From: Marsupella aquatica | Lineage: Eukaryota; Plantae; Marchantiophyta | Assembly: GCA_973895155.1 (NCBI GenBank) | Contig: OZ316894.1 | Location: 14,337,680-14,401,679, forward strand | DNA length: 64,000 bases | Direction: 5' to 3' | The notes under the pieces: generated by a model | The model's database searches: none | The model's input: only the letters and a program-made list of their open reading frames with translations | Told to the model about the DNA's origin: nothing | Made by a program: the position numbers and the translations under genes | Shown: in pieces, positions 23,226 through 62,471 of the stretch | Layout of the letters: the number at the start of each line of letters is the position of its first letter | How positions within the stretch are numbered: the first letter of the stretch is position 1

Positions 23226-23549
23226 TATGCTTGAGGCAAATTTTTTTCCAACATAGGATTTTGTGCTACAGAATGATGAATCAGATGTGGGGCTGTTGAA
23301 TGAGTTGAAACGAAGGTCATCCTTCTAAATTTTTTTAGAGAAGGATTCGCTTAAGCAAGTATCATAAGGATATAACCCAAAGAAGAAATTTGAATGGAAT
23401 TCATTGACTCCATTTACAAATTGACACCAACAACCATTACAAATTGAGACGAGAGAAATCTAGAAGCAAATTCAAAATTGATGCTTCATCAATTATCTGA
23501 GGAAGATTACACATAAGGTGATTTGAGGAAACTGCCAACATTGAGAAAA

Positions 23550-34198: not shown

Positions 34199-34304
34199 AT
34201 CTTAGATTAAAATTTGAGGTAGCTTTTTTGCAACAAAATAAATCAAACCCCTCCTTAACACAAGGGCAACACTCTATGGAAAATAGTATTCCATCTCAAG
34301 AGCA

Positions 34305-34440
34305 TGTTGTGCGCATAAACATTGCTACACAACATACATCGCTTGTCACACATATCTAAGCATAGTCACAATTAACATCACAAACATAAGAGAATGGAGT
34401 ACAAGTGAAACTCCTATCCACACATGTCCAAAACCCACAA
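34305..34440 (-). repeat. Terminal repeat B2 (136 bp)
   Basis: Direct repeat of 34774-34909, about 8 mismatches counted by eye. Confidence 0.92.
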
Positions 34441-34771
34441 TAATCTTCAAGAGCAATTGAACAATGATTGATGCCAATCAAACACACAATCCTGCCCGAT
34501 GCGATCACACACTTATGTCAAGCCAAACGCACCTTGCGCCTTAAGGAATCCATGTTACGTACACACAACCTAGACAGCCACACGATAGCCGCTAGAGTTT
34601 GTGCTCGAAAGGCTCAACATCAAAAGATGAGACCTTTGAGCCAACACAAAGAGATATATAACTATCCCTCACAAACATACACTAACTCTAAAACACTTAG
34701 ATAACACACATATGAAAGCCTCAAACCTACATAGTCCAATATCCTATACTACCACTCATAATGGTGTGACA
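34441..34771 (-). repeat. Repeat A2 (331 bp)
   Basis: Direct repeat of 60811-61141, about 14 mismatches counted by eye. Confidence 0.95.
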
Positions 34772-34773
34772 GC

Positions 34774-34909
34774 TGTTGTGCGTATAAACATCGATACACA
34801 ACATACATTGCTTGTCACACATATCTAAGCATAGTCACAATCAATATCACAAACATAAGAGAATGGAGTACAAGGGGAACTCCTATCCACACATGTCCAA
34901 AACCCACAA
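34774..34909 (-). repeat. Repeat B1, immediately after the PPT-like TAGGGGGGCGA (minus strand)
   Basis: Direct repeat of 34305-34440. A purine tract lies at 34910-34920 on the minus strand. Confidence 0.92.
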
Positions 34910-35084
34910 TCGCCCCCCTAACTGGGAGTGAGGTCCCCTAACTCTAGCTAGCCATAAGTTCTACAAGGTTGATATACACATTTTTTAAGTGTGAAGATCA
35001 TGAGGCTGGGTGCAAGTGAGCCCCATTGATCACCTTCCTGCAATCTATACTTTCCATGAGAACACAAATGGTAACTAGTCGGCT

Positions 35085-36753
35085 TCACTGACATTGAGGA
35101 CACAACCATGATCCACTACGAATCACCTCCAATGGTGGTGTCAAACACGACATGTGCCAACACTTATCACAAATGAACATAGTGGCAGCTCCTTGAGCAG
35201 ATCCACACAACATGCACTTCAAGTCGGCACGAACCTGAGTCAAGCTTGGATCTACTGTACCATCAATGTTTGAAAAATAACATGGTGCACAATTACGTAC
35301 ATGTTCCTTCCAAACCATACCATCACGTCCTTCCAACATTAGGACACTAGAAGACAACACTTCACGCACACGTAAGATTGTCCGACCTGCGGTCATGTCA
35401 AGTGTCGTTGGTGCTGTTTGCTGCAAATAAACAAAATCACCAGGATGAAACCGTCAAATCCTCGCACGATAACCTCCTCCACGAATAGTGGCATACCTCA
35501 AAGTATCACGATGTTGAGCAATGACAAGGTTTTCAAAGGCCATGGGCATGACTCTCTCAAAAACTCGTGCCCTCTTTGAGCACACCTTGACCCAAACATC
35601 AGGATCATCCAAATCCACAACAATTGCCACATCACGACGAATAGCCGTTGGCAAATATGGCTCTCTACCATAGAGCAAGAAATAAGGTGAGAAAGATGTA
35701 AGTGATGCTTGTCAACTAAAACGGTAGCCCATAGCTAACCAAGGTAGCTGGAGATCCCAATCTCCCAAATGACCAACCTGCAAGCCATACTTACACAATC
35801 CTCTCTTCACGGTTTGTACAACTCTCTTTGCTAATCCATCTGCCTCTGGATGATCACAAGAAGTAGACAGTACGATGATCAATAAGAGCTTGCTCACACA
35901 AACCCTCAAACTCTCCACGGAATTTTGTGCCCCGATCAGTCAACACCTCAACCGGTGCTCCAAAATGACTGAGTACTCGATCCAAAAATGTGATAGCCAC
36001 TCCTCCACTAGCTTTATCTGGCAATGCCACTAGTTCAATCCACTTGGAAAAGTGCTTCACCATAACCAAAATATATCGATTATGACGTTGGGTAAGAGGT
36101 AATGGACCAGCAAAATCCAAACTCCATTGATATCCCAAACCCATTATCGATAATGGATGCAATTGGGGAGTGGGAGCATTGAACAATGCTTGCACTCGAT
36201 CACATACCACACACTTAGCAATCAATTGTTGGATATCAGTGCGCATACCACACCACCAATAATGTGTCTGCAACAAGCTATATGTGCGTTTCACACCAAA
36301 GTGACCCAACTCCTTTTGCGCATGTCGCACCAAACGTACTCGTTGTGACAATTTTGGTACAACCAACACTTTGCCATCATGTAGTATCCTCAAAAGATGG
36401 TTTCCTTCCCATCGAAACCTCTTGGCTCGTTGTAGAACCCTATCTCGCTCCTTAGCATCACAATTGCCAACAATGGAGCCACCACGCAAATATTCCAACA
36501 CTCTCTTGTCGTTATGAATATCTTGCTGCCCAAAAACTACGTCATCAACATCCATATCTGAAGACTCAACATCTACCCCATCCAATAAAGTAGAGTCCAT
36601 AGATCCACTATATGTTGGAACCCAACAAAGAAAGGCAGATGCATGCCATCCTGGCACACTCTCCTTATCCGACTCATCATGCCATTGAGCTCCAGTCTCA
36701 TCCTCTTGACTGGTACATGGATTACGGCTCAACCCATCCGCATCCAAGTTCAC
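35085..36753 (-). pseudogene. Gypsy DDE integrase with C-terminal PHD finger
   Basis: H..ELGHFG...CVVC, WSLDFAGP, VLTDRG, HPEADGLAKR, LYGREP; CMLCGS...MFICDKCWHMSCLTPPL...GSWLCPQC. Confidence 0.92.
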
Positions 36754-36774
36754 TTTACTAGGCCTATGTACAAC

Positions 36775-38108
36775 CTAGAAATCATACTCTTGTAACAACA
36801 ATGCCCATCGTGCAAGCTTTCTTGTAAGCTTGTTAGACTCCATTAACCACTTGACGGGCTGGTGATCATTGATCAAGGTGAACGGATTACCAAACAAATA
36901 GCAACAAAAATGTGCCACAGCCCACACAGCTGCCAAACACTCTCCCTCATACGAGCTATACTTAGCCTCTGCTGAATTGTTTGATCCACTGGCATATGCC
37001 ACAACAAACTCATTCCCCTCATCATCCTTCTGAGTTAGCACTGCTCCAAGTCCTACTCCACTCCAATCAATGTGTAGCTGAAATGGTCGTCCCAAAATGG
37101 GTCTTCTCAAAATAGGTGTTGACGCCGATCTTTCCTTCAATTCTTGGAAAGCATGCTCTTGGTCGTCACCCCAAATCTACTCCTGGTCCAACTTAGTGAG
37201 TATAATTAAAGGCTTGGCAAGTTGGCTAAATCCTTTAACATACTGTCTATAATAGCTCGCCAATCCCAAAAATGCACGAACTCTACTCACATCAGTAGGA
37301 CGAGGAATCTGTGTAATGGCCTCCACCTTAGTCTCTTGCACACCCAATCCTCCTGGGTAGATAGTGTGGCCCAAATACTCAATTTTGTCTTGGAAGAACT
37401 TACATTTGCCAGGATGAAGTTTCAATCCATATTCTCTCAATCTCTCCAACACAATCTGCAAGTGTCTTTGATGTTCTTCCACAGTCAAAGAATAGACCAA
37501 AATATCATCAATGTAACATCTCACAAAATCAAAACCTACAAGAATTCAATCCATAACTCTTTGAAATTCAGCTGGTGCATTCTTCAACCCAAATGGTAAG
37601 AACAATCACTGATACAAACGATCTTTGCCATAAGAATCAATTCCCCAAAATGCTATCTTGGATCTATCAGAATGCCTAATTGGCAACTGATGGTACCCCG
37701 CCTTGAGGTCCAACGAACTAAATATCTTTGCATGCCCCACAGCATCAAAGATCTCCTCCAGTGTGGGCATAACATATCGATCAGATTTTGTCGATAATCA
37801 CCACACATCCGCCTATCTGTGTAATTGCCATGCACATCCTTCTTGGTTGGCATCACTATGGCAGATGCATACTCCCCATATGAGATCTCCACCAAACCAG
37901 CCTCCAACAAATCTTGAGTTCTACTCTGGATCAAAGCCCTCTCCATGTCATTGTACCAATACGGTCGTCGAAAGATTGGCGCATCACTAGCCAATTTGAT
38001 CTGAATACCAGGACCCTTCAATGTCCCCAAATCCTTCATACTAAATGCAAAACAATTCCAATAACTCTTCAAGAATTGATGCATGCAACGTCTCTCCCTC
38101 CCAGTCAA
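36775..38108 (-). pseudogene. Gypsy reverse transcriptase and RNase H
   Basis: RRMCGDYR, YIDDILVYS, KCKF..IEYLGH, FLGLASYYR, LHIDWS..GLGAVLTQ, YSSYEGECLA, LARWALLLQEYDF. Confidence 0.95.
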
Positions 38109-38120
38109 CTTAGGACCAAT

Positions 38121-38321
38121 CTATGGTTCCCAACTCTCCATCAAAGCTATGACATCTTCCTTTGCAGTTGAAGAGGTCACAAGCCACGGGCTGTGACTCT
38201 CCTTCAAAGTTGTGACGTCTTCCTTTGGAGTTGAAGAGGCCACAAGCAGCGGGCTGTGACTCTCCATTGAAGCTGTGATGTTTTCCTTTGGAGTTGGAGA
38301 GGCCATAAGCTGTGGGCTGTG
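38121..38321 (-). repeat. ~60-bp (20-aa) coding tandem repeat in the DNMT-RT linker
   Basis: ASPTPKENITASMESHSPLL / VASSTPKEDVTTLKESHSPWL / VTSSTAKEDVIALMES. Confidence 0.8.
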
Positions 38322-38539
38322 GATGGAAGAGACAGTCGCTTGTTGCTATTTATCAATGGTTTGAGCAACCTCCTTTTGCTCAACAAAATGTTTTGCCTTG
38401 GCCAATCCTGCCATAGGTCTATTAATTGTCTGCTTGCTCCCAACTATGGCCGCTATTGTCTCGGTAGGCTGCAAGCTCACCAATGGATGATTTGTAACAT
38501 TAGAATTGCGCATTCGCAATTGTTCAACTAATCCCAAGC

Positions 38540-38844
38540 TGATAATCCAAGTCAAACAATTCAAATCCATGGCTTGACCAAGGACCTGACAACGTGAATG
38601 CTCTGACATCGAGGCCACTGCCGTGGTGCTGGTCAAAAATCCCATAGCCCGCTCTCTCTCATTAGCGGTAGGCTCTACTAGTCATTGTAGAGTTGTATCT
38701 CACACAAGTCCAGGGCCACCTGCTCGAAATGCGTATGAAGTAGAATGGCTCACAAAAGTGGGTAATGCACAACGCGGACGCCCAACAACATTCACCACTG
38801 CCAATGGTGGTCGATCAGATTGGGTAACACTTTGTGCACAACGC
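38540..38844 (-). pseudogene. C5-cytosine DNA methyltransferase, C-terminal half (motifs IX-X)
   Basis: ALPTFVS...LVEPTANERERAMGFLTSTT...SEHSRCQVLGQAMDLNCL. Confidence 0.9.
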
Positions 38845-40891
38845 TGTGACGCCGCCGGTACGGCGAGTAATGAGCAATTCAGTCTAAACCGTGCCTAGCA
38901 CGCGCGTCAGGGGTATCTTAGGCCACTATGATTAGCATAACGACAGTATTTAGGTAGCCATTATGAGTAGGAAATCATTAGTCAATAAGGGGAATTCATG
39001 TCTGGGCTGGCGGCGCGTCGCCATTCGCACGCCCGGGTTACGAGCGTGGAGGGGCCCCTCCCTCGGGTCCGTATAACAAACTTTAGGAGGCGTCCACTGA
39101 CACGCGGTGACTCAGACCGGCGGAGTGGCCGGTACACTACAAGCGTGAACGGTTCAGCCTATAGGCAACGAGGAGATGTCGAGGGATCGGCAAGCCCTCA
39201 AGGTATAAAAAGGGAGCCGACCCTTTGGAGTGCACCAGTCCATCAGTCCACGCGCCAGCTTTGACCCCAGCTCTCTCATTCGCTCTAAGTCGCCACTACT
39301 ATCTCCTCTGGATGTCGCACACGATCCTCTCCAGCTCGGCCATTCGATTTTGGACGCAGTTCCTATCTACCGGAAGGCACTTGGCCGACTCATTGAAACA
39401 CGCCAACCCGCACCGATACGAAATCGAACGTGAGTACGAGAGAGCCATCCGCCTAGCAGGACGACACCACTACATCCTTAACTTTGACTACCCGTCTCAG
39501 AGCAAGCTTTACCGACTAGCAGAGGTATCTAGGTACTTCTTCAACGGAGACAAATATATCGGTTTCCGGGAAGCATTGCTTCGGCTTCCGAACGAGGTCT
39601 TCAATATCCCGGGTACGATTGACTTGCAACGACATCACTTCAACCACATCCTTGCTCAAGTTCGGGCTATCATCAACAGCGAGTCCAGCACTACCCGTTC
39701 GACAAGGTCGTCCGCACTTGCTTTGGAGAACTTCTACCAGCACCTGCAGAGCTTCATGGGAACTAGACCTGCAACCACCGGCGCCAGCCCAATGGACCCC
39801 ATACCCGTACCCATACCAACGCAGACTCAGGCTCAGGCTCAGCTTCAGGCTCAGCTTCAGGCTCAGCTTCAGTCTCAGCCTCAGCCTAGCCAACCAGGTC
39901 CAGCTCCTCAAGGCAGACAATGACAGACTTCGTAAGCAGCGGGATGGCCGCTCCCACTCGGGCGGCTGTGGCAAGCGTACCAGGCATTAGCGGCGGAGTA
40001 GGAATAGAATAGGGTTAGGAGTAGCTAGGTCAGGCTATTGGGACAGGCACCTGCCTTAGTTACAGCAGTATTGCCATGTTGTCCAGCCTGCGTAGATTAG
40101 AATCTTCTAATAAGACACAGCCGTTTTTTGGCCTGACAGTCAGATTAGTTAGGACCTAAGTCAGCGAATCTTCGGGCGGTAGGACACTTTGTTCCCCGGC
40201 CCTTAGTATTTAGTGCACCCCTCGGTTGAGGCAGGGGGGGTTTTAGTCTCAGAGTTGGACATCCGTGGTATGTGCGGGGAGTCCCGACCTCTGGGAGTGA
40301 AAGAGTACCAAGGGGAGGGGGTAGGACTAAGCTCGCCGGGCGAGTGCGGAGCCGGGCTCTGTTGTAGTATACTCTCTCGGCCTTGAACCTGTTCATTCCG
40401 GAGCTATCGGGTCAACCAAGTGTACGCACATGTCCCCTATGTAGTAAAATCCTTTCCCATTATTTCCTTCGTGTAAATCGAGATTGTATGCTTGTGCGCG
40501 TGTATGTGTGTGTGAATCTCGTGTATAGGTGACAACGCCGGGCCGAACGCACTACCCGAGTCATGCACAGGGTGCAGCTTGCGGGGATGTGGTTGCGAGC
40601 ACGGGTTGAGGACCTGTATCATAGAATCCGGATCGAAGGCGGACAACACGAAGGCCTAGAAGTCCTTAAGCCGGGGTCGATCCTGTTATCGACTAAGGTA
40701 CGTTCCGGCGGTGGAACACAAACCATACCTAGGAGATGCCCATATCTAACAGTAGGCGCGTGTATGTGTGTGTGAATCTCGTGAATTAGGTGCATTACGC
40801 GCTTCCCTCCCTGCCCGAACCCTCATATTTACGAAGGAGATGCCCATTTAAAGCTGAAGCCCGAGTTTAGGCCAAGGCTGATGACGTGACA
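38845..40891 (+). repeat. 5' LTR (2047 bp, carrying a ~2-kb internal deletion)
   Basis: Matches 46996-48022 and then 50011-51004, with ACC microhomology at the join near 39893. Confidence 0.93.
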
Positions 40892-40904
40892 TAGCCTTTG
40901 TTTT

Positions 40905-40922
40905 TGGCGCTAGATGGAGGGG
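40905..40922 (+). promoter_or_regulatory. PBS TGGCGCTAGATGGAGGGG, probably complementary to the tRNA-Asn 3' end
   Basis: Starts with TGG, 13 nt after the LTR end. One mismatch to the plant tRNA-Asn(GUU) 3' end as I recall it. Confidence 0.65.
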
Positions 40923-41015
40923 GCACTCTACATATCGTAGAGGGGAGACATGTGCGTATGCACCTGGGCAAAATACACCAGGCCCTAGTACTAACCATCG
41001 CATTTACACGAGTAA

Positions 41016-44000
41016 ATGCCCGTTACTCGTTCTCAAGCAACTTACTTGAGGAGATTGACCAGCGAACAAGAAGGTGCAACCACAACAAGCTCCGATTCTT
41101 CGGGCTCAGAGGACTCGCAATCTCCCCGACGAATGAACATACCACCGGGACCGGGACCTTCGGGGTCCGGTTCGACCGGTCCTACTGCGGTTCCTGTGCC
41201 ACCACCGCCACCACCGTCACCACCGCCACCACCTATGGCAGCCGCCCCACCGATGGCCCGCGCTGCCCAATCCCCTCCACAAATATCGCAACAATTGCGG
41301 TTTCATTATCGACCTTTCAAGGGGCGTCATGGGGATGATCCGGATGAATGGTTGGATGAGTTTGAAGCCACTGCTAAGGCTAACGGGGAAGACGCCATTA
41401 AGTTAACCGTCCTCCCCGGAGTGATGCGGGGAGAAGCTCGTCCATGGTACAACTCGCTGCCACCCGGGACTACATGGGCACAATTCCAAGCTGCATTGTT
41501 GCAAGAGTTTCGTGCTATTGGATCCGAGCAGCGCTCTCTATTAAAGATCTGCCAGCTTCGCATGGGAAAAAAGGAGTCCCTATGAAAGTTCATTCAGAAG
41601 TTTCAGAAACTTGTTGCCAAAATACGGCCCAGGCCTGGTGACGCTCTCCAGCTTACATGGTTCCTCCATTGTTTGCCCACCAATATGCAATTCTGGGTGC
41701 GCCATAATAATCCAATTTCAATGCAAGCAGCCATAGCATGCGCCGAAACCTACCGGGAGTCCACCTATAACTCCCGGCGAAGCCAGCGGGCACGCCGCAA
41801 GAAGGGCAAGTACGAGACCTTCAGTGACAGTGACTCCGAATCAGACGACGAGAAGAAGAAGAAACGCAAGAAGAAGAAGAAACATCGTTCGACCTTATCC
41901 AGTTCGGAGACTGAATCTAGTTCGGATTCAACTTTGAATAGCGGGTCCTCCACCTCCAGCTCATCAGGAAGTGATTCGGAGAGTGAGAGCCGGAGCAAGA
42001 AGAAGAAAAGGCGGGTTAAGAAGGAGGGGAAAATCAAATCTCGTACTCACAGAGCAATACCCGATCCAAAGGCTGCCGAAGCAGATAAGCTTAACAAAAT
42101 CACGAATCGCCTCAAAGCACTATCAGTACATCTCGCGGAAAAGCCGGTGGAGAAGAAGAAACCATCTGAGATTCGAGCCCATGCATGGTGTTCAAAGTGC
42201 TTCCAATCCGGGCATGTCGTGCAAGAATGCCCAAGATGGAAGAACTGAGTTCACCAGGTGGACTTAGATGATGTCGACAACCCGGGACCTGAAGCGGAGT
42301 CCACGGAGTATTTCTTTGAAGACCCTCCTAATTTGGTGTATCAGATTTCAACGGTGGGTCCGCATAACTTAGCAGGTAGAATTGCATACCCCTACCCAAA
42401 CAATGGCCGAGGCTTCCAAGTTATCAGTAACCCTAGCATTCCTCCTAAACCAGGGATTTGGCGATCCCCGGTTTGTTACAACTGTGAGAAGCCAGGCCAT
42501 TTTGCGAGGGAATGCACAGAACCAAGACGCCAGGGGGATGGCCGTGGCACGCCACTTTGTCAAGTCTGCAAAACAGAAGCTCATTCCACGGCCAACTGTC
42601 CATTGGTAATGGCCGCTCAAACAAATGCAGCAAGACCAGCCCAGGGCGGACCGGCCACGAGTGATGCGGTCGTCCAAATGATTGCAGTGGAATGGCAAGA
42701 TGACAACACCGAGTGGGTGAATCTGGTGGATGTGGCGGAACACCCTAATCCATCTGACGAGGCTGAGTGCTATCGTGTGTCAACAAGAGCCGAACAGAAG
42801 GAAGAGAAGCAGGAGGAGAAACGCAGGAAAAAGCAAGATACTACTCCGGTGCAGCCAGCGATAGATATACCCCCGGAGAAGGACGATGACTACCGACGGG
42901 ATGACCCGAAGCTATTTTTCCCCCGCATCAAAGAATTGGTAAAGAAACAGCTGGAGGCCTACGAAGCTCGGGAATACCAGAAGGCAATCGATAAGGACAT
43001 CAAAGCAACCGAGACAGCCCGGCGACAGGAGCAAGAAAAGCAAGATAAGCAAGAGGAAGCCAAGCAGCAGCCGAAGGAAGAAAAGAAGGAGGACTATGAT
43101 ATTAAGGAGGACGTGAAGAGTTGCCCGGTTACAGCAACAGTAGGACAACTGCTGCAAAACAATCCACAGTACAGACGGCAACTGAGGGAGTTGCTTACGG
43201 GTCGACGACGGAGACGACTACCCCGAGTTGGGACTGCAGATTGCAACATGATATGTGAGGACCTGGGAGCGCCGGACATCTCGATTGAAATTAATAATTG
43301 TACCATCAGGATGGTTCTCGTAGACGGAGGAGCGGGAGTCAACATCATGACGAAAGAAACGTCAGTCAAGTTAGGATACCTCACGTATCAACCCATAGCC
43401 CGAGCTATTAGATTAGCAAACGGGGCAAGGGTACTTCCATTGGGCACGCTTACACGGGTACTCACTCTGGTAGGAGGGGTGGAGTTCTATCTCAACTTCC
43501 TAGTCATGAGGCCGGTTTGGCCCTCCTCTTATCCGGTCCTCCTAGGCAGGCCGTGGGTGTACGGTGGCCGTGTGGTCACGGATTGGGGAAAGAAGGAGCT
43601 ATGGTTCGGGACACCCACAGTACAGGTATCATGGACAATGGACGATTATCAGGGTGAAACCCCATAGGGACCCGAGGAATATGATTCGGAGACCTCGGAG
43701 GAAGAGGAACTCAACATGATTGAACTCATATCGTCCCTGTCCGAGGAAGATGTCTTCAGAATTGAGGCAACCCGCGAAACACATCTCCTGAATTACCCGA
43801 AGGCTGCTATTGAGCCCACCCCAAGCACCTCTACTGCCCGGGATGAGGAAACGCAAAAACAACTCATCGATACGGAGGACCCGGCTCCAGCTAAGCAGGG
43901 AACCGATGTTGCTTCTACCAGTGTAGAGCCTCATGACCACGAACCAGCCAAACAATCGGCCGGGGCTGAAACCCCGAGACCAAGACATAAGAAACGAGTC

Positions 44001-46940
44001 TCCTGGGATCCGTCCATCCCGCATTTGGAGGAAGTAACTCCAATCCCGAGACCAATCCCGGTTCCACCCATGTACGGAGGATTTCGGTTAGCTGAACTTG
44101 ATGCGAGCCTGGACCCGAGCTTGCGGAACCAGGTTGAAGTCATCAGGAAGGAGCACTACCGGAAGTACACCATTGGGATGGATAAATCGTTTAACCTGGG
44201 CCACGCTCTGACAGGGGAGGCGGAAAAATCTATCCAAGCTCTGCTCAAGGAATATGAAGATGTGTTTGCATGGAGCCATCACGATTTAACAGGAGTCTCC
44301 CCCGAGTTAGGAGAACACGATCGATTTGAATCTGGGGGCCCATGCAGTACGACAGCGACAATGTCGCATGAACCCAAGGTACTCCATCTTAGTGAAGGAG
44401 GAAATTGATCGTCTCCTCGCCACAGATATCATCTACCCGGTAATGGCCAGCGACTGGGTCTCTCCCATCGTCATTGTACCGAAAAAGGGAGGAACGGACG
44501 GAAAACCTAAGATCCGGATTTGTCAGGACTATCGTAAGCTGAACGACGCGACCCGAAAAGACCATTACCCATTACCATTCACGGATATGGTTCTAGATAT
44601 GGTAGCCCGAAATGAAATTTATACATTCCTTGATGGGTATTCGGGTTACAACCAAATCTGGATTCGCCTCTCGGATCAGCTCAAAACAACGTTCACTACG
44701 GAATGGGGGACTTTCGCATTTCGGAGAATGCCGTTCGGGTTGTGTAACGCTCCGGCCATGTTTCAGCGACTCATGATGAATATCTTCCATGATTTCCTAC
44801 GGGAATTTCTGGAGATATTTATCGACGACTTTGCCATCTTTGGAATTGTCGCCATGCACCCCGAACACCTAAGACGTACGTTCCAACGATGCCGAGAGGT
44901 TAACCTCAAACTACATCCCGCTAAATGTTTTTTCGGGGTAGAGGAGGGAGTATTACTCGGGCATCGTGTGTCCAAACGGGGTATCGAGGTGGACCAAGAG
45001 AAGGTCGCGGCCTGGATGGCGGTGGTGTTTCTCGTAGATCAAAAAGTGGTACGATCCTTCTTGGGCTGTGTAGGGTATTACCGTCGGTTTATTAAAGACT
45101 TTGCTAAAATAGTGTTGCCCTTGACTGAGTGATGAAAAAGGACGCGGTGATCGAGGAGACACCCAGGAGACGGATTGCTTTCGAAGAACTCCGTAAAAGA
45201 CTCACCACCGCACTTATCATGGTCACTCCGGACTGGAATAAGGAGTTTCACGTGTATGTCAATGTGTCAGGGTTCTGTATTGGATCCGTGCTCAGTCAGC
45301 TTGATGAGAACGGACGCGACCACCCCATCTACTTCGCTAGCCGTCAATTATTCACAGCCGAAAAGAATTATTCCCCCACTGATCGAGAAGCTCTGGGAAT
45401 AATCTACTTGTGTAAAAAGTTCCGACACTATCTGCTAGGCTACAAGGTCATATTCCACACGGATCATGATAGCCTGAAGTACATGGTCAACAAAGCGGAC
45501 GTGACGGGACGGATAGCCCGGTGGGTGCTACTTCTCCAGGAATTTAACTACAAAGTTCGGGTTCGGCCCGGAAAGGCACACCTCAATGCCGACTTCTTTT
45601 CAAGGCTGGACGGCGTACCAGTCGATCAGCCAATTGATGATATTTTTCCAGATGAGGAGTTGTTCCACGTAGGGGCGGGGACGCCAACGTGGTACGGCTC
45701 AATAATCACCTTCCTCTTGATAGGCCGCATCCCGGACGGCATCAATCAGGAAGCCGCCGCTGTGTTTCTACGGAAAGCCGGGCCTTACATCATGGTACAG
45801 GGTCACCTACATAAGGAAGGAGTTAATGGGAAGTTACGACGCTGCTTGGAGTATAAGGAGACGCTTATCGTGATGCGGGCCTTGCATGAAGAAGAAGCTA
45901 GAGGCCATTTTGCGGCTATCACAACAGCCCAAAAGATTATGGACTCCGGATATTGGTGGCCTACGTTGCATTGGGATGTACAATGCTTCATCAAGGGTTG
46001 TGACCTGTGTCAACGGGCTGGGGCCCCGAGACGAGCTCATCATCACCCTCTCACGTCCGTACTTCCATTAGCACCATTCGAAAAGTGGGGTATTGATTAT
46101 ATCGGGCCATTTACTCCCGTTACCCGAAGACGAAGATGCAGGTACATCCTGCTAGCTATTGATTACTGCACCAAGTGGGTCAAAGCACGGGCTACGGTGA
46201 AGGACGACGCCGCAACCAGCGCCAGGTTCTTATATGAACAGATTTTCACCCGGTTCGGACCACCCTTAGAGTTGGTAAGCGACCGTGGAACACACTTCCT
46301 CAATGACACTATAGCCCAACTTACGGAGCGTTACCTAGTCAAGCACCGCAAGACTACCCCGTATCATCCTAAAGCCAACGGGATGGCAGAGAGAGTAAAT
46401 GGTATCATTGGGAAGATCCTCAACAAAACTGTAGCTGCGCACAAAACGGATTGGGATGATAAGTTGTATGCAGCGGTGTACGCGTATAATCTAGCTTACA
46501 AAACTACTACGAGTCACAGCCTGTACTTTCTCGTTCGGCCAACATTTGTTGGTGCCCGTCGAGTTTGAAGTACACACTCCACGGGTCAGCATTCGGGATT
46601 GCTTGCCCAAACCTGAAAGTTCGTCAGACCAAGCTTATCAGATTGAAGCCTTAGAAGAGGCACGACTACTAGCATCTTGACACGCCGTACACCAGCAAGC
46701 AACTTCTAAGAAGCAGCACGACAAAGGACTACGGAAGGTCAATGTCGTGACAGGCGATCTGGTCCTTCTGTACGATAGTAGGTACATGCAGTTTCCAGGG
46801 AAGCTTCATACCCGTTGGTTAGGGCCCTTCCTAGTCAATCAGATCTACCCTAATGGATCATTGGAGCTTGCCATGTACGCCGGCGATTTACTCCTCACGC
46901 GAGTTAGTTACGATCGTGTAAGGAAGTACCACCATCAAGA
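41016..46940 (+). pseudogene. Gypsy gag-pol (gag with three zinc knuckles, PR, RT, RH, IN)
   Basis: FKGRHGDDPDEWL; CSKCFQSGHVVQEC, CYNCEKPGHFAREC, CQVCKTEAHSTANC; LVDGGAGVN; DYRKLN, FLDGYSGYNQI, IFIDDF; NYSPTDRE; WGIDYIGP, SDRGTHF, GKLHTRWLGPF. Confidence 0.95.
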
Positions 46941-46995
46941 CGACGACGCCGAGAGTGATGTTTGCGAGGACGCTTCACAATTAAGCAGGGAGCTA

Positions 46996-51660: not shown

Positions 51661-51779
51661 CTCTGGATACTACCACACAATAGGAGTGGTATCCAATGGT
51701 GAAACGGTCACCGGTCCATCTGCAAAAGACTGTTGTGCTCTTGACTCCGGTGTAAAAGCATGATGCCAGACATCATGTA

Positions 51780-52613: not shown

Positions 52614-53093
52614 ATAATGTGGCTACCAATCTGAACATTCAGCTGGAGTAACTCCCAATGCCATATCTGTTGCTGAAAATAACGGGGTGCACACAATATT
52701 TGTGGCCGCCCCCAGCAAGGTACTTGCCATCCTTGCTGCAACATCATCTGATTCCACCAACTTATCCACACTTGGATTTGTCTTAACCGGGTTCATAGAG
52801 GTAGTTTGAACTGCCTCTAACAATGTAAAAGATTGGGGAAGCTTTGTTTGACGACGAGCTTCCCCCCTTGAGGATCCAACTCTACCATTGCTCCTCGAGT
52901 CAAAGCTGCCAATGCATCAATATGGGCAGTGCCACACATGAATCCCATGGTGGCCAAGTCTCCGTCAGCTCCATAAGATGTAGAAGCTCCATCACCAGAA
53001 GTAGGTCTAACCTGAGAACTGGCCATGGCAGCTAGTTGTTGCTCCAATTGAGCAATCTTTGCATCCTTTGGATCTATGGTAGTGGTAGGAGCA

Positions 53094-53865
53094 TCACCTC
53101 CTTGTCTCCCTGCATACCTCGGCCGTGACCACCACCTCTACCTCCTCTTCCCTGATCATACATACGTGATCCTCCCCGTCGTAGTTCAGGATGGAGTATA
53201 AAACACCTATCCTTGGTGTGACCAAAAACTCCTCAATGATCACATAATCGTTGATCGGGCATAGATGCCCCTCCGGACTCTCTATTATCCAGGCAATATC
53301 TTTGTGCATGATCCCCACCACAAGTCCAACATCATGACTGCTGTCCAGCATAGGAGGGCATAGGTCTCTAACTAGTAGATTCCTGTGTTGTAGGCTTCTC
53401 CCTCTGACTCTTCCTTACAGTAGGTTGTGGTGTGGGTGTAGATGCAACCTTTGGTGAGCCTTCCTTGACAAATCCGGAAGTCACCACCTTCTCATTCACC
53501 ATATTGAGCTCAATGCGCTCGGCTAGTGCAAAAACAACAGCCAATGTGGGATCTGAAACCCTCAATAGAGTGGTGTCTCTTACTCTACGCCGCAACTCTC
53601 TATCCAAAATTGCATACCAAAATTGAATTGCTTGGGCCTCTATCACTCCCTTGGTGACTGTAATTAATCTTTGCATACGAGTGTATGCTTCGCGTAGACT
53701 CTCTCCAGTCTTGTGCTGAAAATCTTGAAGACCCTTCAACACATCAAAGAACTTCACCACGGTTAAATGTTGGCATAACTCCACTCCCACCCACAATTGC
53801 ACCGGTAGGAGTAACGGTGGATGCTGGTGGAGTGCCACTCTAGCTAGTGCTACTAGAAAAAGCAA
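53094..53865 (-). pseudogene. Gag C-terminal part of the DNMT-gypsy, with zinc knuckles
   Basis: FQHKTGESLREAYTRM; CWTCGGDHAQRYC; CDH*GVFGHTKDRC. Confidence 0.8.
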
Positions 53866-55038
53866 CAGCCGGGGTGTTAAACACTAATTCTTACCTCCGA
53901 TTAACCCAACTTAACCCTTCTCTTTTCATTCACGTTTGTATTAACCGATTAATCGTCCAACAATAGGGTAATCTAGTAAATCGTTTTCATATTCTGAGCA
54001 TGTAATTTCAGCTGAATGTTCTTTGATGTCTACTTCTTCTTTCCACTTCCTGGGTACAATCGACTCAGTTAATACTAATCCTTCCCTGTATACAATTTCT
54101 ATAAATCCACACCACTCACGATAAGTGAAAATACAAATTGGAATACTCTCTTCCCTTAACCGACGAGTAATTAGGTGCGAACCATCGAACAGATCCACAG
54201 TTCAATTGGCCTGAGCCTAATTAGCGAGGAATTCTTCCTATCCTTGTCGCTAGTATTCATACTTCCAATGATTGTGATCTGATTAGATCCAATTGTCTCA
54301 TTGATACTCCCACCAAGAGTTCGATCAATTACTTATGCTGCAAAGTAGATCAAGAAAGGCTATTCGTAAGTAGAATATCAATTCAACGATTACTCCGTTA
54401 TGCTACAGGTGCATGACAATTAGATTGTCATTCTCGAAACACACACACCTCAGCCAGACTCCACTGCTTATGAGTTGTTTGTTGGTTTGATTCCGTAAGG
54501 TGTTACTCCTCAATGTGCTCACCCTGAGTGAATTAATCCTCATTCATTCTTGCGGTCGGAATATGGCCGTCTTAACATACTTCTGTCTAATCCTCGGTTT
54601 ATAACTTTAACAGATTCAACTCTCTTTATAATTCTGATTGTCTTACTCAATCTTCTCTTTAATTTTCCCTCTCCTCAATTCTGAATCCCTTCACTCTCAA
54701 TTCTTAATCTCGTAGTCAATCACCATCTCTTTCTGTAGACCCTCTCACCAAGGTACTCATCCACGAACAATTCATCAGGTTGTGTCATAATGATTTCTTT
54801 ACTTCTCAACATCAAAAATTCTACTCACATCTGAGTAGGGAACACTTAAACAGATCTACTGATCATCTTAAGGAAAGTCTGGCTTCGCCTTTCAATCAGA
54901 TTACCTATTGCAAAAGTGACACCCTGTTCTAAGCTCTTGCTTGTCTTAAATACTATCTTTCGGCAAAATTATCGGTCTTCAAACTGTCCGACTAACAAAA
55001 ATGGTTATCTAACTTACTAATCGAACATAACTACATAG

Positions 55039-58000
55039 TGTTGTAACTCATACTTGAGTTAAGTCTACCTTTGGGATAACTACCTATGTAACTACCCTAA
55101 CTACTTAGGCCGTAGCCACATGTACATATCCTACCAAGAGTAAAGATGGAACCAACTCTTTGTCTCATTTCTCCCACAACACGTTATCAGCACATAGCTC
55201 TCCACGAGCAATCTTTTCTTTGAGAGAAAGGCCAGATTTTCATTGAGTGTTTATAGATTTGACATAACTGCCCCTCCCAAGAAGCTATGGATGAGAACTT
55301 CTCGATCACATTTCTAATTTTAGGTTTAACAAGGACGTTTGTGATTCCTCCAAATGTCATTGCGGAAGCCATGGACTACCTATGCCGAACCATGATGGAC
55401 CGATCTCATAAGGACATCGAAGATCACTTAAGGAGGCACCAGAAAGAGCGAGAGAAAACGATTAAGCAAGAATCAAGAAAGAGTCGGTGCGAGAGAAAGC
55501 ACTGGCAATGAACATTGGTAAGGCGCTGACAAAGAGAATCGAAAGTATTAAGGATTGAGGCGAGAAACAATAAGGATTGAAGGTGAAGAAACCCCTCTGG
55601 AAACGACCTTTAAATCTGAGAAGAAACGAAACAAATTCTGATAAGGATAGCAGATAAGGAAAATTACAGAGGATCGAGGCATAAATCGATCGAGAGAGGA
55701 GGAAAGGCACGAACAAAACAGAGGATCGAATGCAACCATTCAAAGACTGAGAGCGCATTCCATAAGGACAGCATTGAACAGAGACAAGAATTGAAAAGCA
55801 GTACCGCAGAACAGAATCCATAAGAAAAGACTGAACCTCACCCCACTGATCGAAGGCGAAAAAAAAAAATTCAAGCAGCAAAAGCATCGGGAGGCACTGG
55901 CGAAGAAGCATAAGAGAAATGAATCGATCTAAAGCGAAGAAAATCGAAGCGCCAGCGCGAAACTGAAGGCAAACAGAAACCCATAAGGACAATCGAATCA
56001 AGATTGGAAGATTGAAAACTCGGGAGAAATACAAGAGCAGAAAGAGAAAGGAAAAACAAATACTCAGGGGGAGTGGGCTATTCGCACATCCCCTGGTCTA
56101 CAACTTGAGACAACAAGAACTTGAATTGAGAGAGAAAATTCGATGATGATGAAACAAGAATAGCATAAAGAAGCCACGCAACCGATGCGAGCGAGGGAGC
56201 GATAAGACACGTCACGGAAGGAGAAAAGAGGGAATTTCCGTGCTGCCAAAGTTGCGACTGCACCAAAGAGAATCAGAGGAAAAGCAACTAGGAAAGAAAC
56301 TACCGAGCGATCGAGGGGCGCAAGAGCGCTAACAGCACAGATCAGCCCAAAGTAGAAGGAGTCTTTACGAAAAGGCGAACACCCTTGAGGAAAGTAAGGA
56401 GGATAGCGATGACCAATGGAAGTCCCAAAGTTACGGCACCTATAGCACAGAAGGACACAGAATGCCAGTTTCGGTAAATAGTTCTCGTGAGATTGGCAGT
56501 ATGCATGGACGACATGGAACAATCCACGACCAGGGGTAGGGGCATTGGTGTTATGAACTTACGAGTTGACCATTGGGAGCCAGTGCCTACAGGGTTCGCT
56601 TCTTGAGGATCACACAATGACTTCCCGGGATTCAAATCGGAGAGATGATCTACCCACAATACACCGAATAAATCACTGGAGATAGCGTAGGCAGGTCCAG
56701 CAAATTACCCTCAGTCGCCATTGCCCCTTCTGGAGAGCAACGATGGGTCTGTTTGAGAGCAACTAGTACCCTGGAGGAAGATGCTAAAGAAGAACGATCG
56801 GACCCAGATACGATTCGGCACACAATAATAAGGACAGGGGAACAAACATCAAGGAGGCCCAAGTCATTCGAGTAAGATAGCGCACCCAAAATGATACAAG
56901 TGCCGTATCAATTTAGACAAACAAGGATAACAAGGCACTAACGTCGATGGCATTCAACATGAAATATCGAGGAGGGCCTAGAGATAAGAACCCAAAATGT
57001 CGAAAGAAGACGGCACAATTCACGGGACACAAACAGACCACCACAGACCAAAATAGTGATGCAATGTGGAGGCGTCAAAATTTGGAAAGGAATGCAGCAA
57101 GAAGTGAAGTAGAGGGACGGAATGAAGGAAGGAACCATGCCACAATAAGCGAGTGAAGCAAAAAAACAAAAAAAAAGGAGTACAACAAAAAGAAGCCATC
57201 AAACCAAAGGAAAGTCCTCCACCTTTTCTTCTAAGCAGACCATTTTACACTAAGGAATGGAGAACTAAAGAACAAAGAGACTTTCTCTTCAAAAGGCAAG
57301 AAAAACCAAACAACAAGGCATGAAGTAAGGACATAAAGAAAGAAACTAAATTACAGAACCTACATGGCGACAAATGATGATTACTTCCACCAATTAATTT
57401 CATAAATTCAGGGGGAGAATTGTTTTTCCCAACGTGCCTACTGCACTTAAAAGTTAAGCTCTGTGCCTACTACACATGGAAGCCAATGAGTGCCTACTGC
57501 ACATGGAAGTAAATGACAAATTGAGGGGGAGACCTCAAGTAAGACTTGACATCAAGCAATGTAACCCATGGGATGTGCCTATTGCACAAGTGCCTTTCGC
57601 ACCAATGAATACCTAAAAATGGAACTCTATTCCATGCATATGGCAAATCATGAAATCTAAGGAATTTTTATAAATGATTGAACATGGTGTTAACACAATC
57701 ACTTACCAATACTTGATGAGGTATACTGGATATTAAAGTACCATATGATAATATGAGGTACAGTACCAGGTCATAAGGTACCATAAGGTGAGACATGGCA
57801 TGGTAAGGCACCATAAGAGATGGTGCGCCATACCCCAATATGATAACCCTATGTTGTGGATATGGTACGTGATGTGGTGCAAATAGGTTATGCCCACACC
57901 AAATCTAGGGTTGGACACCCAATCCAATTCCAAGGCCATGGATTACACCATATCATCTTCATTTTGTACTAATACTTTGCTTTGTCATGGCATGTAATCG

Positions 58001-58528
58001 GTGACCATCAAGGAGTCTCCATTTCCCGATTGGAAGGAGACACGAGAAACAATCAACCAAGGAAGATCTTCAACAAGCCTATAGTGCACATACACTATAT
58101 GCTTAAACCCAATTATGTTACACCCATGGGGATGGTAATACTCTTTCCTCCCACAAAGAAAGTAGGGGAGGTTTTAATGAGGTTACATCCTCCACTTACA
58201 CTTTACCATGCAACATGAATTATAAGACATCCATTAGGAGAAGCTTTACATTCATAGTAGACTTGAGATGGCTGCACCATTTATAAAATAGGCTAGACAT
58301 AAACAATACCTATTGTATACCACTGAGTATACCCAAAGTAGACTCTTGATTGTAACATTTAAACCCCAATGTTACAAAGGGGGAGTGTTGTAACTCATAC
58401 TTGAGTTAAGTCTACCTTTGGGATAACTACCTATGTAACTACCCTAACTACTTAGGCCGTAGCCACATGTACATATCCTACCAAGAGTAAAGATGGAACC
58501 AACTCTTTGTCTCATTTCTCCCACAACA
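55039..58528 (+). mobile_element. Non-autonomous Bianca-type LTR element, copy 2
   Basis: 143-bp LTRs at 55039-55181 and 58386-58528; TSD CATAG; PBS CGTTATCAGCAC; PPT AAAGGGGGAG. The 3' ~1 kb is nearly identical to copy 1. Confidence 0.95.
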
Positions 58529-58613
58529 CATAGCAGTTAATAAACTATTGTTTTGCGGTTACTAAACCGCAATCCGTGGTTTCCGGTTGGTATACTCTGT
58601 TCAACTGAGACTA

Positions 58614-59207
58614 CTACATCGAACATCTCTGTAAGCGATTGGTGGTTGGAGTCGTGGTTTCTGAACTGCCAACGGTTAAGCTTCTCAATTCTGATGTCAC
58701 ATGATAAACATTCAATGGATCTTCTGGTTCACTAATATTCCAAAAAATGATTACTCGTTCAGCGACGATTAGCCTCCAGCAGTGACGTTGTCGTTGATCG
58801 AGTTCTCGTCCCAACGTCAGGTTCCACTTTGATGACATGACTCCCCTGCAAAATTCTTCAATAGCTTCTTGAGTAGTCAACTGTTGTTGGAAAGTTTCAC
58901 CATTCATGCCAAAAAGCTGCTGCCCTGCTTCATTCCATACTCGGCAGTCTCCCTCCCTAAGGCGGATCATAAATCAAAACATGGGCTTCCCCTTTCCTAC
59001 GAGCTTACAAAAATGAGTGCCTCTATCCCTACTGAAAACGTTCGATTGTTCTTCTCCCCTTTGCCTTCGTTGTCTTGCTTTCACCCCCAGAGCGCAATCT
59101 CTGCCGTCTCCTAGCTTGGTATCGCATCCTTCATAGCAAAACCCTAATTCGGTACTACTCCAAATAGCAAAAGTTGTCGTGCCTTCTAATGTTAGTCTCC
59201 CATCCAT
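58614..59207 (-). pseudogene. RPA70 C-terminal-like OB-fold/Zn-ribbon remnant
   Basis: FCYEGCDTKL...C...HFC...PMF*FMIRL...VWNEAGQQLFGMNGETF...KWNLTL. Confidence 0.5.
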
Positions 59208-59325
59208 CTTACTAAGCTATTTCCACCTGCTACTGATCCCCTTAAATACTTGATCTATTATCTTTCGCTTGACGTTTCTCCACTAATTCTACTTAATTAT
59301 TTCCTTGGTTTACACGGGGCAACAG

Positions 59326-59790
59326 GTTGAGAAACCGCACTTGTGCCGTAAGTGATGGACACATAGTTTGGTGACCAATGTTGTCTCCAAATCTCAATAT
59401 CAGCCAAATGGGACTTCCACAACTCATGGTAATCATCCATGGGTGGACTCTCCAAATGCTGAAATAACCTTTAAGTTTCCATGCCATGAAAGGTGTAAAC
59501 AATGTGGCATTACGCATCGTTTGCATATCACACCATGTATCAAACTCTTGGATGAAATCATCCAAATCAATTGTGCCAACTTCACCAGAGTGTCTCCTAG
59601 GGCCCTTAGTGGACCCATATGTCTCCTCCATATCCCACAACAATGGTGCAACAACCTGATGATGAGGAGAGTTGGCTATAGAGCCCTCGTCAGAATCACT
59701 ATCTGAAGCTCCACTGGTATCTGCTAGCAATGTCGTTGGCCGAAACTGCACTCCACTTTGAGTGAAACCAGTCCGTTGTTCACCAAGTAG
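59326..59790 (-). pseudogene. Gag N-terminal part of the DNMT-gypsy
   Basis: HSGEVGTIDLDDFIQEFDTWC. Joins 53861 once the insertion is removed. Confidence 0.7.
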
Positions 59791-59829
59791 CTTTGCATTA
59801 TTGGAAGACTCCGTGATTCCAAAACCCTA

Positions 59830-60162
59830 GGCCACAGGCCGTGGGCTGTGGGTACCTACCCACACAAACAAGATGAATCGGCCACAGGCCATGGGCTGTG
59901 GGTGCCAACCCACACAACCAAGATGAATCGGCCACAGGCCGTGGGCTGTGGGTGCCAACCCACACAACCAAGATGAATCGGCCACAGGCCGTGGGCTGTG
60001 GGTGTCTACCCACGCAAACCAAACTGCGAGAGGCCACAAGCCGTGGGCTGTGGGTGCTAGCCAAGCTGCAAGAGGCCACAGGCTGTGGGCTGTGGGTGCC
60101 ACCCCACACAACCAAGATGAATTGGCCACAGGCCGCGGGATGTGGGTGCCTCCCCACCAAGA
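59830..60162. repeat. Seven ~50-bp hairpin-containing tandem units in the 5' leader of the DNMT-gypsy
   Basis: GGCCACAGGCCGTGGGCTGTGGGTGCCAACCCACACAACCAAGATGAATC, with units starting at 59830, 59880, 59930, 59980, 60032, 60074 and 60124. Confidence 0.92.
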
Positions 60163-60796
60163 CTCTCTTTGCTCAAGTCATGCGCCAAACATGCCGCAAT
60201 TGATGGGCAAATCACTAATCACTATTTGTCGTTTCCTCTGTGCCCTAAGTCACAGCCGCCTCGCCTCTCCGCGGTGCCTTATCTTGTCACGCGCCGCCAA
60301 CACAATTCACCAACATTCAACATCGTTTCCTTCATAGAAACGTACTATCCATCAACAAGGAACTTGATGCAAATCAGAACTGCATCCTACAAAAATTGTA
60401 AACATAATCAACTGTCGGGCTCTCAATCAAACCGCCTCAATCAAAACCTCAAAGAGTCGCACATCCGACTACTTTCCCTTCACAAAATAGGATCATACGC
60501 CACTATCTGTCTCGCACAAATTGTCGACAGCAACATCCGCTTGTTGATCACACAATCAGTCCTCCATGATGCAGCAACGCATATCCATGAAGACCGCAAC
60601 TCCAAAACCGCAACTTAGCAACAACAACTTGAAGCTGCACTTGAACTACGCAAGCGCCGCACCAACTTGCAATAGATTGAGATACCAACGATCCGTTCAA
60701 TAACAACACCCGATCCGAGCTACCACGAATCGTCAACAACAAAACCAAAATGAAATCAAACTTCTGTCTGCACAGTCTGCACAACAGAGTTCGAAG

Positions 60797-60810
60797 CTCA
60801 TCTTTTGATG
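60797..60810 (-). promoter_or_regulatory. Self-priming-type PBS complementary to the presumed transcript 5' end
   Basis: Perfect 14-nt reverse complement of 60988-61001, which lies ~25 nt downstream of a minus-strand TATATA (61025-61030). Confidence 0.75.
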
Positions 60811-61141
60811 TAATCTTCAATAGCAATCGAACAATGATTGATGCCAATCAAACACACAATCCTGCCCGACTTGATCACACACTTATGTCAAGCCAAACAC
60901 ACCTTGCGCCTCAAGGAATCCACGTTACGTACACACAACCTAGACAGTCACACGATAACCGCTAGAGTTTGTGCTCGAAAGGCTCAACATCAAAAGATGA
61001 GACCTCTGAGCCAACACAAAGAGATATATAACTATCCCTCACAAACATACACTAACCCTAAAACACTTAGATAACACACATATGAAAGCCTCAAACCTAC
61101 ATAGTCTGATATCCTATACTACCACTCATAATGGTGTGACA
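60809..61141 (-). repeat. 5' repeat A1 (TGTCAC...GATTACA, 333 bp) with TATA box
   Basis: Direct repeat of 34441-34771. Confidence 0.93.
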
Positions 61142-62471
61142 AGCATTTTTCTATAAAAATCAAGATTTGTCCCCTATTTTCCTAGTGGAAATTGTTATAT
61201 TGGTTGACAGGTCATTGTGGTGCTTATTTCCCCCTTCTGTGGGAGTTTTGCGATCTACTATAAACATAAAAATATTCTTGAAAAAAATTGAGTTAATTTT
61301 GCTTTTGCTCATTGATCAAACTACTTGAGGCGCTATGAGTAAATTGTGAAGAGCTTAGTCTACACATAAGTTTATTTACCATAAAGGCCAGATAAGGCCT
61401 ACAAATATCTAAACATACCTTACATATTTTCTGTTTTTTTATTGAATTAAAAAAATGTTTAAAGTGACTAGCTTGAAGGAATAGAATATTAAGAGAATAC
61501 AATGAGGCTTGCAATCAATGATGGTACATGGTACCCTTGGACAAAAATGAAGAGATGGTGCCTTGACATGATACTTTTGGATAGTTGGACAGAAGTGATG
61601 ATCTGACATGGTATTTTTGTATACAAGTGTAAAACATAATATCCAAGTATATATGTGTGTTTGAGTCAAGTCTATCTAAGTTTGGTTTGTCCATGGGGGT
61701 TTCATAGACAACTACCAGTCCATCCTGGCTTTTAGTTCAGAATGTGGAGATCAAGCCTATTACCTTTTACTTAAAAAAAAGGTTTTTAGTTCAGAATGTG
61801 GAGATCAAGCCTATTACCTTTTTAATTTAAAAAAATGTTAGCTCCACTAGAATTGGAGATCAAGCCACATGCATTGGAGCATTAACGGACTGTATTTGTA
61901 GGTTACTAAGTTTTGCACCATCATCATGTGCAACAAAGTAATCTCTCAAAGGCAACCGGAGCAGTGTCACTTGTTCCTTAGTGCGTGGAGTCGGCCAGGT
62001 AGCACGGAGAGAGAGACCTCCAACAAGGAAGGATTATCTTAGTAAGTCTTAGGGCCATCTTGCATGTGTGGGTCTTTAAGTGGTCAGGTGGCTCCTTTGG
62101 AATGAGCGAGAGTTTCCTGCCTCACCCCCCCCCCCCCCACACTTGAGCCCAGTATTCACCGCTATAATGGTGGAGTTTCAAGGGCAACAGCTGGACACTT
62201 TCCGCCCTTAGGTCCTGTCCTTTGAAATCAAATAGAACAGACAGATTGAACAAGAAATGACAAAAAAGCACACACAAGAAAAAGATTAAGCAGCAATCTC
62301 GCAATTTAGGGAGTGCAAAGGTCCGATTTTTGGAAGACCTCATACGTGCAAGACAGCTATTATTTAGTAAACATTTTAGGTGCGGAAACGTCGCGACTCA
62401 ATAATAAAGCTTGGCGAAAGTAGCGACTACTGAGATGACATACCCGACCAATTCTTCTACGATTTTGAAAA

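Follow-up and report, generated by a model that had tools for sequence, protein, structure and literature searches.

The tyrosine-recombinase retroelements PAT, Ngaro and TOC1 are presumed to form a circle, from whose B/A joint they integrate, and in the IS3, IS30 and IS21 families of DNA transposons a DDE enzyme integrates a circle in which two ends abut 2-3 bp apart, the transposase itself having made that junction. Here we describe a Ty3/gypsy retrotransposon of the liverwort Marsupella aquatica whose terminal repeats are split in the order A, coding region, B, A, B. It lies in a window of 64,000 nucleotides (contig OZ316894.1 of assembly GCA_973895155.1, positions 14,337,680 to 14,401,679 of the forward strand), which is the whole stretch of DNA analysed and to which all positions below refer; because younger elements are nested in it, we call it the host element. 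The variant that it represents is real and lineage-wide; it has been glimpsed before in two figure legends, and its mechanism is unexplained in the literature searched.

The first of these legends concerns KnitGypsy-Dnmt3 of Klebsormidium nitens, to which Fig. 4c of de Mendoza et al. (2018, PMC5890265) assigns DIRS-like repeats A-coding-B-A-B. Like the host element, KnitGypsy-Dnmt3 combines these repeats with a Gypsy domain set and a C5 methyltransferase in pol (PF00145); the accessible text of that paper gives no target-site duplication (TSD), junction, primer site or mechanism. The second concerns Gypsy-7a_cRei, a PHD-bearing family of Chlamydomonas reinhardtii with 86 new insertions in the Chlamydomonas v6 paper (Craig et al., PMC9940879), whose left long terminal repeat (LTR) is without the 8 bp that end the right one (Fig. 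6A legend, 2022). An earlier note on this DNA had held that split direct repeats mark tyrosine-recombinase retroelements and not DDE-integrase gypsy elements. The name KnitGypsy-Dnmt3 appeared in no other paper of the full-text literature searched, and no published explanation of the layout was found in open full text, a search that took in neither subscription journals nor Repbase reports nor the 2021 thesis of Craig, any of which may describe it. The accessible parts of PMC8226300, bioRxiv 2022.05.23.493040 and PMC7197481 hold no passage on split Gypsy LTRs; the last of these treats permuted reads as autointegration products.

Retroviruses provide an enzymatic parallel. The earlier note had pointed to the cleavage of palindromic LTR-LTR junctions by foamy virus integrase; in vitro the prototype enzyme cuts each strand of this palindrome behind its CA, so that AT protrudes at the 5' ends (Delelis et al. 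2005, PMC1180852). The 2-LTR circles of HIV-1 have been described as a reserve that, once linearised, can integrate (Thierry et al. 2015, PMC4372172). The host element resembles the foamy virus system in its DDE integrase, its CA-NN-TG palindrome and the geometry of a cut on both strands that would leave processed ends. In foamy virus and HIV-1, however, the palindrome arises from joined ends of the complementary DNA (cDNA) and the provirus keeps two whole LTRs, whereas the host element encodes it within its LTR. Because the palindrome lies there, and because the end-to-end seam carries no CA/TG, the insertion is permuted. A further parallel is the self-priming primer-binding site (PBS), which is known from Tf1/Sushi and has been predicted in the plant elements Tcn1 and TAR (Neumann et al. 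2019, PMC6317226). Tf1/Sushi and the plant Tcn1 chromoviruses share this property with the host element, in which it is predicted, but they have whole LTRs and a chromodomain, in contrast to the PHD finger and D(34)E integrase of the host lineage; the accessible text of PMC6317226 mentions neither PHD, Klebsormidium nor a methyltransferase.

Structure of the host element

On the minus strand the host element reads A1, internal region, polypurine tract (PPT), B1, GC, A2 and B2, with a 4-bp target duplication flanking it (Table 1). It spans 26.8 kb including two younger nested LTR elements, and is itself about 11.2 kb long. The layout A...B-gc-A-B with TG...CA outer ends and AGCA flanks had been proposed in the earlier note, and every repeat was found where that note placed it. 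The exact ends of the repeats had to be corrected, since the CA that had been given to the end of A (60810-60809) is part of the 15-nt PBS, and B begins with ATTG directly after the PPT, at 34910. These boundaries rule out TG/CA at the 3' end of A and the 5' end of B. A1 and A2 differ at 14 of 330 positions and B1 and B2 at 8 of 137, mostly by transitions, and the two rates are alike (Fisher p=0.48), which agrees with the proposal that both pairs are equally old.

Because the PBS adjoins A1 and B starts at the PPT, the predicted cDNA has B-gc-A at both ends, as had been foreseen, and carries neither TG nor CA there, as had not. The A2|B2 seam, at 34442/34441, is base for base what would result from joining these two predicted ends bluntly; one A can be assigned to either side in the window, and the seam of L001/L004 is unambiguous. 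The B1/A2 joint reads ACA-GC-TGT. None of 2000 shuffles equalled the self-complementarity of the PBS, whose partner at A positions 141-155 lies ~29 bases below a TATA-like box, and the pairing of PBS and self-primer is the closing stem of a predicted fold (z -4.7). An Rfam search with the leader of the host element gave no match.

The order protease-reverse transcriptase (RT)-RNase H-integrase with a DDE integrase, the PBS after the left repeat and the PPT before the right repeat are all those of a Ty3/gypsy element, and the best match among solved structures is Ty3 Gag-Pol (E 4e-118); the pair of complete, collinear LTRs that Ty3/gypsy elements have, with PBS and PPT as their inner limits, is absent. 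The layout is the one with which PAT, Ngaro and TOC1 are described (PMC5890265), but the host element differs from them in its Ty3/gypsy RT, its PBS and its PPT, and in 4-bp TSDs that are variable and unrelated to the spacer. A profile search of the kind that the earlier note had proposed for intact copies gave no Pfam match to a tyrosine recombinase at E<=0.01 among the 77 host open reading frames (ORFs) of at least 55 amino acids, in a degraded copy from which a short remnant could have been lost. The absence of variable TSDs that characterises the DIRS order does not extend to the host element, in which they differ between sites, and no internal complementary region of the DIRS1 type was found. 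The 12-nt match between B and the A-side flank junction that had been likened to such a region exists in the window, but its counterparts at four other sites measure 0, 0, 5 and 0 nt. In contrast to the IS3, IS30 and IS21 families, the joint of the host element is templated in its LTR.

Table 1. Features of the host element and of the elements nested in it, in minus-strand order
Feature	Position	Strand	Remark
Target-site duplication, A side	61142..61145		AGCA on +
A1, left terminal repeat, 330 bp	60812..61141	-	Starts TGTCA
TATA-like box within A1	about 61030-61025	-	From sequence
Predicted self-primer within A1	61001-60987	-	A positions 141-155
Primer-binding site, 15 nt	60797..60811	-	15/15 complementary to A positions 141-155; predicted self-priming
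50-bp tandem array, 5' leader	59830..60157		Repeat detection
Gag-like region, broken frames	52853..59631	-	tblastn of P0056, P0072; interrupted by 55039-58528 insertion
Nested small LTR element, conventional, not host	55039..58528	-	Identical 144-146 bp LTRs, TG...CA, 5-bp TSD CATAG
Aspartic protease region	51783..52622	-	Pfam match weak and sub-threshold (E 8e-4)
C5 cytosine methyltransferase, first part	51005..51542	-	PF00145, E 2e-9; PCQ motif present
Nested conventional Ty3/gypsy, not host	38845..51004	+	D(35)E integrase; TG...CA ends; 5-bp TSD, one base mismatched
C5 methyltransferase, second part, past nested insertion	38403..38843	-	Homology
Reverse transcriptase and RNase H, stops and frameshift	36778..38138	-	Homology
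DDE integrase (H2C2, rve core, C-terminal part), frameshifted	35217..36774	-	Third catalytic position = K
PHD finger, end of pol	35088..35216	-	PF00628, E 7e-7
Polypurine tract AGGGGGGCG	34911..34919	-	Conserved in relatives
B1, 137 bp	34774..34910	-	PPT boundary to ...ACA
2-bp spacer GC, internal CA-nn-TG joint	34772..34773	-	Predicted integrase cleavage site
A2, 330 bp	34442..34771	-	Sequence comparison
B2, 137 bp	34305..34441	-	CA-terminated at insertion edge
Target-site duplication, B side	34301..34304		AGCA on +

The layout at independent sites

The split layout is a family trait and not a peculiarity of this locus. An integrase alignment led to 80 metagenome loci (52 groups after near-identical ones were merged) and 7 from genome contigs; loci that were too short, too decayed or without a recognisable PPT were left out of the layout counts. 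B-nn-A-B follows the PPT at 14 sites, made up of 12 metagenome loci (L004, L020, L027, L030, L031, L037, L043, L049, L057, L060, L062 and L078), L085 and the window. At four more (L019/L033, L063, L052 and probably L003) B alone runs into the flank, an ending that is compatible alike with 1-LTR integration, with recombination between B1 and B2 and with the mirror product A-B-nn-A-internal-B. The conventional 3' end that could have undone the earlier proposal, B-nn-A running into flank, was found at none of the classified loci. In six contigs (L008, L009, L081-L084) the sequence either breaks off within or behind A or continues from A into the PBS, and in one group B has been cut short by rearrangement (L005-L007, L012, L013, L016). 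B always starts at the PPT of the host element, which rules it out as the LTR of a separate small element.

These are separate insertions. The 17 right flanks compared are mutually unrelated, and the visible 5' ends, all 5 of them, read flank|A|PBS. TSDs at five sites are TGCT, ACCT, CCTT, CATG/AATG and AATG, the last from the homologous loci L054 and L060; the duplications of 4 bp and the TG...CA outer ends at these five sites fall within what is usual for Ty3/gypsy, and copies sharing A...B-nn-A-B with different TSDs are what the earlier note had proposed to look for. Contigs of four public runs were compared with the 3' end of the host element. In three runs (X2-X4), 24, 18 and 21 of them, within the best-supported 24 of 609 loose-end rows, leave the element exactly at the CA of B (34305), and their flanks are mutually dissimilar (agreement 0.38-0.41); contig depths and the small share of run X1 were left out of account.

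B measures 76-176 bp across loci. Its joint to A, aligned at 15 places by a script that assumes a 2-base spacer, is an inverted repeat of the form YGACA-NN-TGTCA, in whose best register 6-10 of 10 bases match. The spacers are GC (2), GT (4), AC (5), AA (1), AT (2) and TT (1), and five further joints have the spacer GC with an inverted repeat around two free bases. A perfect palindrome, such as the earlier note saw in the window joint, is no requirement, since only 4 of the 15 spacers are self-complementary. In the window, L001/L004, L020, L031, L043 and L085 the identity between the repeats breaks off exactly at the PBS and sets in exactly at the PPT, and in L085 B1 equals B2 across all 106 bp. 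Complementarity of the self-priming kind was significant in 5 of 7 tests.

Two scans found no relatives in viral contigs. Contigs binned as bacterial or archaeal genomes (L081-L087) carry these green-lineage retrotransposons and are probably contaminating algal DNA.

Relatives in Chlamydomonas

If integrase cuts at the internal CA-nn-TG, as we argue below, the 8 bases missing from the left LTR of Gypsy-7a_cRei should stand after its PPT, together with two more. The consensus in the transposable-element library of PMC9940879, inspected by eye, does read PPT, the 8 bases, GC and then the TG of the LTR. Gypsy-7a_cRei is like the lineage of the host element in its PHD finger, its D(34)E integrase (translated by eye, the only integrase read among these families) and its order PPT-B-GC-A...A-B. 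It differs from the loci above in its B, of 8 bp as against 76-176 bp, and from the window element in that its PHD finger lies between RNase H and integrase, its PBS is of the TGG type and it is active, whereas the window copy has its PHD finger at the end of pol and is dead.

The CA-gc-TG joint is not confined to this family. Entry ends, read by eye, have it in 12 of the 24 numbered C. reinhardtii Gypsy families (2, 3, 5, 6, 7, 8, 9, 10, 11, 18, 21 and 24, three of them in reverse orientation); seven are conventional (1, 4, 12, 13, 15, 16 and 17) and the ends of five are indeterminate (14, 19, 20, 22 and 23). These counts rest on curated consensus entries, at places 5-149 of 158. B comprises 6-8 bases in some families and about 27-50 in others, and no clear G-run precedes it in families 2, 10 and 11.

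One lineage with a shortened integrase spacing

All carriers fall into a single clade of Ty3/gypsy, marked by a PHD finger and a D(34)E integrase. The nearest named integrases to that of the window are from liverworts (64-67%), then from Klebsormidium, Haematococcus and Tetraselmis, and a second search added Chlamydomonas reinhardtii, Volvox, Pleodorina and Tetrabaena. The clade holds 81 of 136 sequences in the integrase-core tree (FastTree support 0.987) and 55 of 98 in the RT-RNase H tree (support 0.996); both trees are rooted on one distant sequence and were built without named plant references. The nested gypsy element and loci L071/L072 fall outside it. The K. nitens retrotransposon protein P0030, which may or may not be that of KnitGypsy-Dnmt3, lies within the RT-RNase H clade.

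The clade has D(34)E in place of the D(35)E catalytic spacing of Ty3/gypsy. All 57 parsable close relatives (of 62 with a core) have D(34)E, as do 102 of the 103 parsable among 116 further proteins, and D(35)E is found in 31 of 31 parsable of 53 distant proteins. By sequence, the closest solved integrase is that of foamy virus. In the loop ahead of the third catalytic residue DHP(E/Q)ADG often replaces YHPxxNG, beside the one-residue shortening. In retroviral integrases the region before the third catalytic residue contacts the donor DNA ends, and the changed loop may be an adaptation for cutting junctions.

The methyltransferase stands between RNase H and integrase in P0036 and before RT in the window and P0029; to judge from these positions, the domain has been moved or gained twice. 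A search with the methyltransferase region returned only 4 proteins, with no K. nitens entry among them.

How the insertions may have arisen

The edges of the insertions are the TG of A and the CA of B, and they are flanked by 4-bp TSDs; we therefore attribute the insertions to a DDE integrase, and regard cleavage by it at the internal site as very likely. The order of events that we think probable, in essence the circle-based route of the earlier note, is that the cDNA ends are joined first and that the element's own integrase then cuts the internal CA-nn-TG and inserts the product. Reverse transcription, self-primed here, would yield a linear cDNA with B-nn-A at both ends, as the positions of PBS and PPT and the standard LTR scheme predict. 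Blunt joining of these ends would then create the A|B seam; the simplest way would be for host end-joining to close the cDNA into a 2-LTR circle. At the PBS-side joint integrase would nick each strand behind its CA, leaving two recessed CA-3' ends with 2-nt 5' overhangs; such ends are its normal substrate, and ordinary strand transfer could follow. The spacer would thereby disappear from the outer ends of the insertion but survive at the inner joint. Joining before cutting is favoured because an 8-bp stub, as in Gypsy-7a_cRei, would not be a plausible integrase end by itself. As for the choice of joint, we can only speculate. Where B is short (6-8 bp) the PBS-side joint might be chosen since only it has a full attachment arm after end-joining, and since the two joints differ beyond 8 bp the integrase could tell them apart; where B is long, the PBS-side LTR might be preferred since it becomes double-stranded first.

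Several observations weigh against this reading. The A2/B2 seam, which the earlier note took for a fossil circle junction, does consist of exactly the two predicted cDNA ends, but the circle step, like the cDNA and the enzyme activity, is deduced from genomic sequence. A symmetric long-B circle has two identical joints, which makes the observed asymmetry a weak point: none of the 5 visible 5' ends shows the mirror product, and it could account for no more than 4 of 18 3' ends, a deficit against one half with p=0.015 (the sites being partly from related hosts). Two contigs (L008 and L083) read PPT-B-nn-A-PBS; they look like collapsed repeats, and a conventional or tandem form also fits. Self-priming fares unevenly, with complementarity not significant in L031 and L007, a negative exact 14-nt test in L083, and TGG-type PBSs in the short-B Chlamydomonas families. 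Retroviral integration from circles, moreover, has been proposed and not substantiated (PMC1180852).

Of the alternatives, the one that survives best, though we consider it unlikely, keeps the same internal cut and has the seam made by an end-to-end RT jump or by head-to-tail joining of two cDNAs into a linear concatemer, out of which integrase cuts one unit, with no closed circle and no host ligase. It accounts for the base-exact seam equally well without host repair and leaves the same genomic product, so that the genomes fit a ligated circle and an RT jump alike, and the two cannot be told apart from them. The integrase would, however, have to skip the middle joint, and A-B-only and internal-B-only products should be frequent; the 4 of 18 3' ends with B alone are compatible with this, and are also explicable by B1/B2 recombination.

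A seam inherited through the RNA, as in PAT/Ngaro, with integrase trimming a longer cDNA at two CA-nn-TG sites, would match the layout of the tyrosine-recombinase split-repeat elements (PMC5890265), and no seam indel occurs among the 12 of 33 rows listed. Nothing would oblige an inherited seam to follow both primer sites, yet several divergent families have A1/A2 identity that ends at the PBS, and B1/B2 identity that begins at the PPT, to within a single base; together with the unbroken identity of B1 and B2 in L085, and with a B of 6-8 bp that would be too short for homology-driven jumps, this makes inheritance of the seam improbable. Improbable, too, is a sequence in which cutting comes first, the left joint of the linear cDNA being cut, both pieces inserted and A joined to the B stub by host repair. 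The product would be the same and the use of the left joint would be accounted for, but each insertion would leave a chromosome break, the observed seams are precise, and an 8-bp stub is shorter than the 15-bp substrates reported for processing by foamy virus integrase (PMC2615609). A window full of nested and broken elements might have spoken for a unique rearrangement, an assembly error or two insertions of a small B element. All of these are refuted by the 14 independent sites, whose TSDs differ, by the unrelated sequence of several of the LTRs, and by an algal library that was curated independently and shows the same layout.

Joining of the cDNA ends followed by an internal cut thus remains the reading that we prefer. 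Its strongest form is that an ancient green-lineage clade with D(34)E integrase and PHD finger, to which about half of the Gypsy families of Chlamydomonas would belong, depends on 2-LTR circles for its integration, the cDNA ends not being attachment sites, the attachment site lying inside the LTR (6 to 176 bp from its end) and host end-joining being required. To this we would give an even chance. 2-LTR circles are usually treated as dead ends, and here a whole lineage seems built for integration from the circle junction, a DDE-integrase element having converged on the layout of tyrosine-recombinase elements. If so, dependence on host end-joining is predicted. The route is directly testable because Gypsy-7a_cRei, active in the laboratory, carries the layout in Chlamydomonas lab strains, CC-4532 and CC-125 being among those in which it moves. 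LTR finders that need two whole LTRs would be expected to mis-bound or miss such elements.

Coding region and neighbouring elements

The window host element is a dead copy, as its integrase is frameshifted and its third catalytic position reads K. A Pfam search of its ORFs found the PHD finger and no chromodomain. The 63-bp repeat between methyltransferase and RT (38133-38321, minus strand) and the 50-bp leader repeat (59830-60157, minus strand) have a common core motif.

The nested pair and two further LTR elements serve as a control within the window, all having TG...CA LTR pairs and 5-bp duplications. The nested gypsy element (38845-51004, plus strand) has a 3' LTR of about 4 kb (46996-51004), including a 2-kb stretch absent from its 5' LTR (38845-40891); this 3' LTR contains long open frames at 47463-49202 and 49203-50108, with no clear Pfam match. 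The small nested element (55039-58528) and another at 19211-22224 are two young copies of one family in opposite orientation, with LTRs of 143-146 bp that are 99-100% identical. They have the same PBS start as the copia element at 23034-29194, which is possibly their autonomous partner. A small dispersed repeat recurs at 24437-24882, 30185-30699 and 33739-33876, one copy lying within the copia element, and a decayed long interspersed nuclear element (LINE) at 10728-16177 (plus strand) retains matches to DUF4283, endonuclease and zf-RVT.

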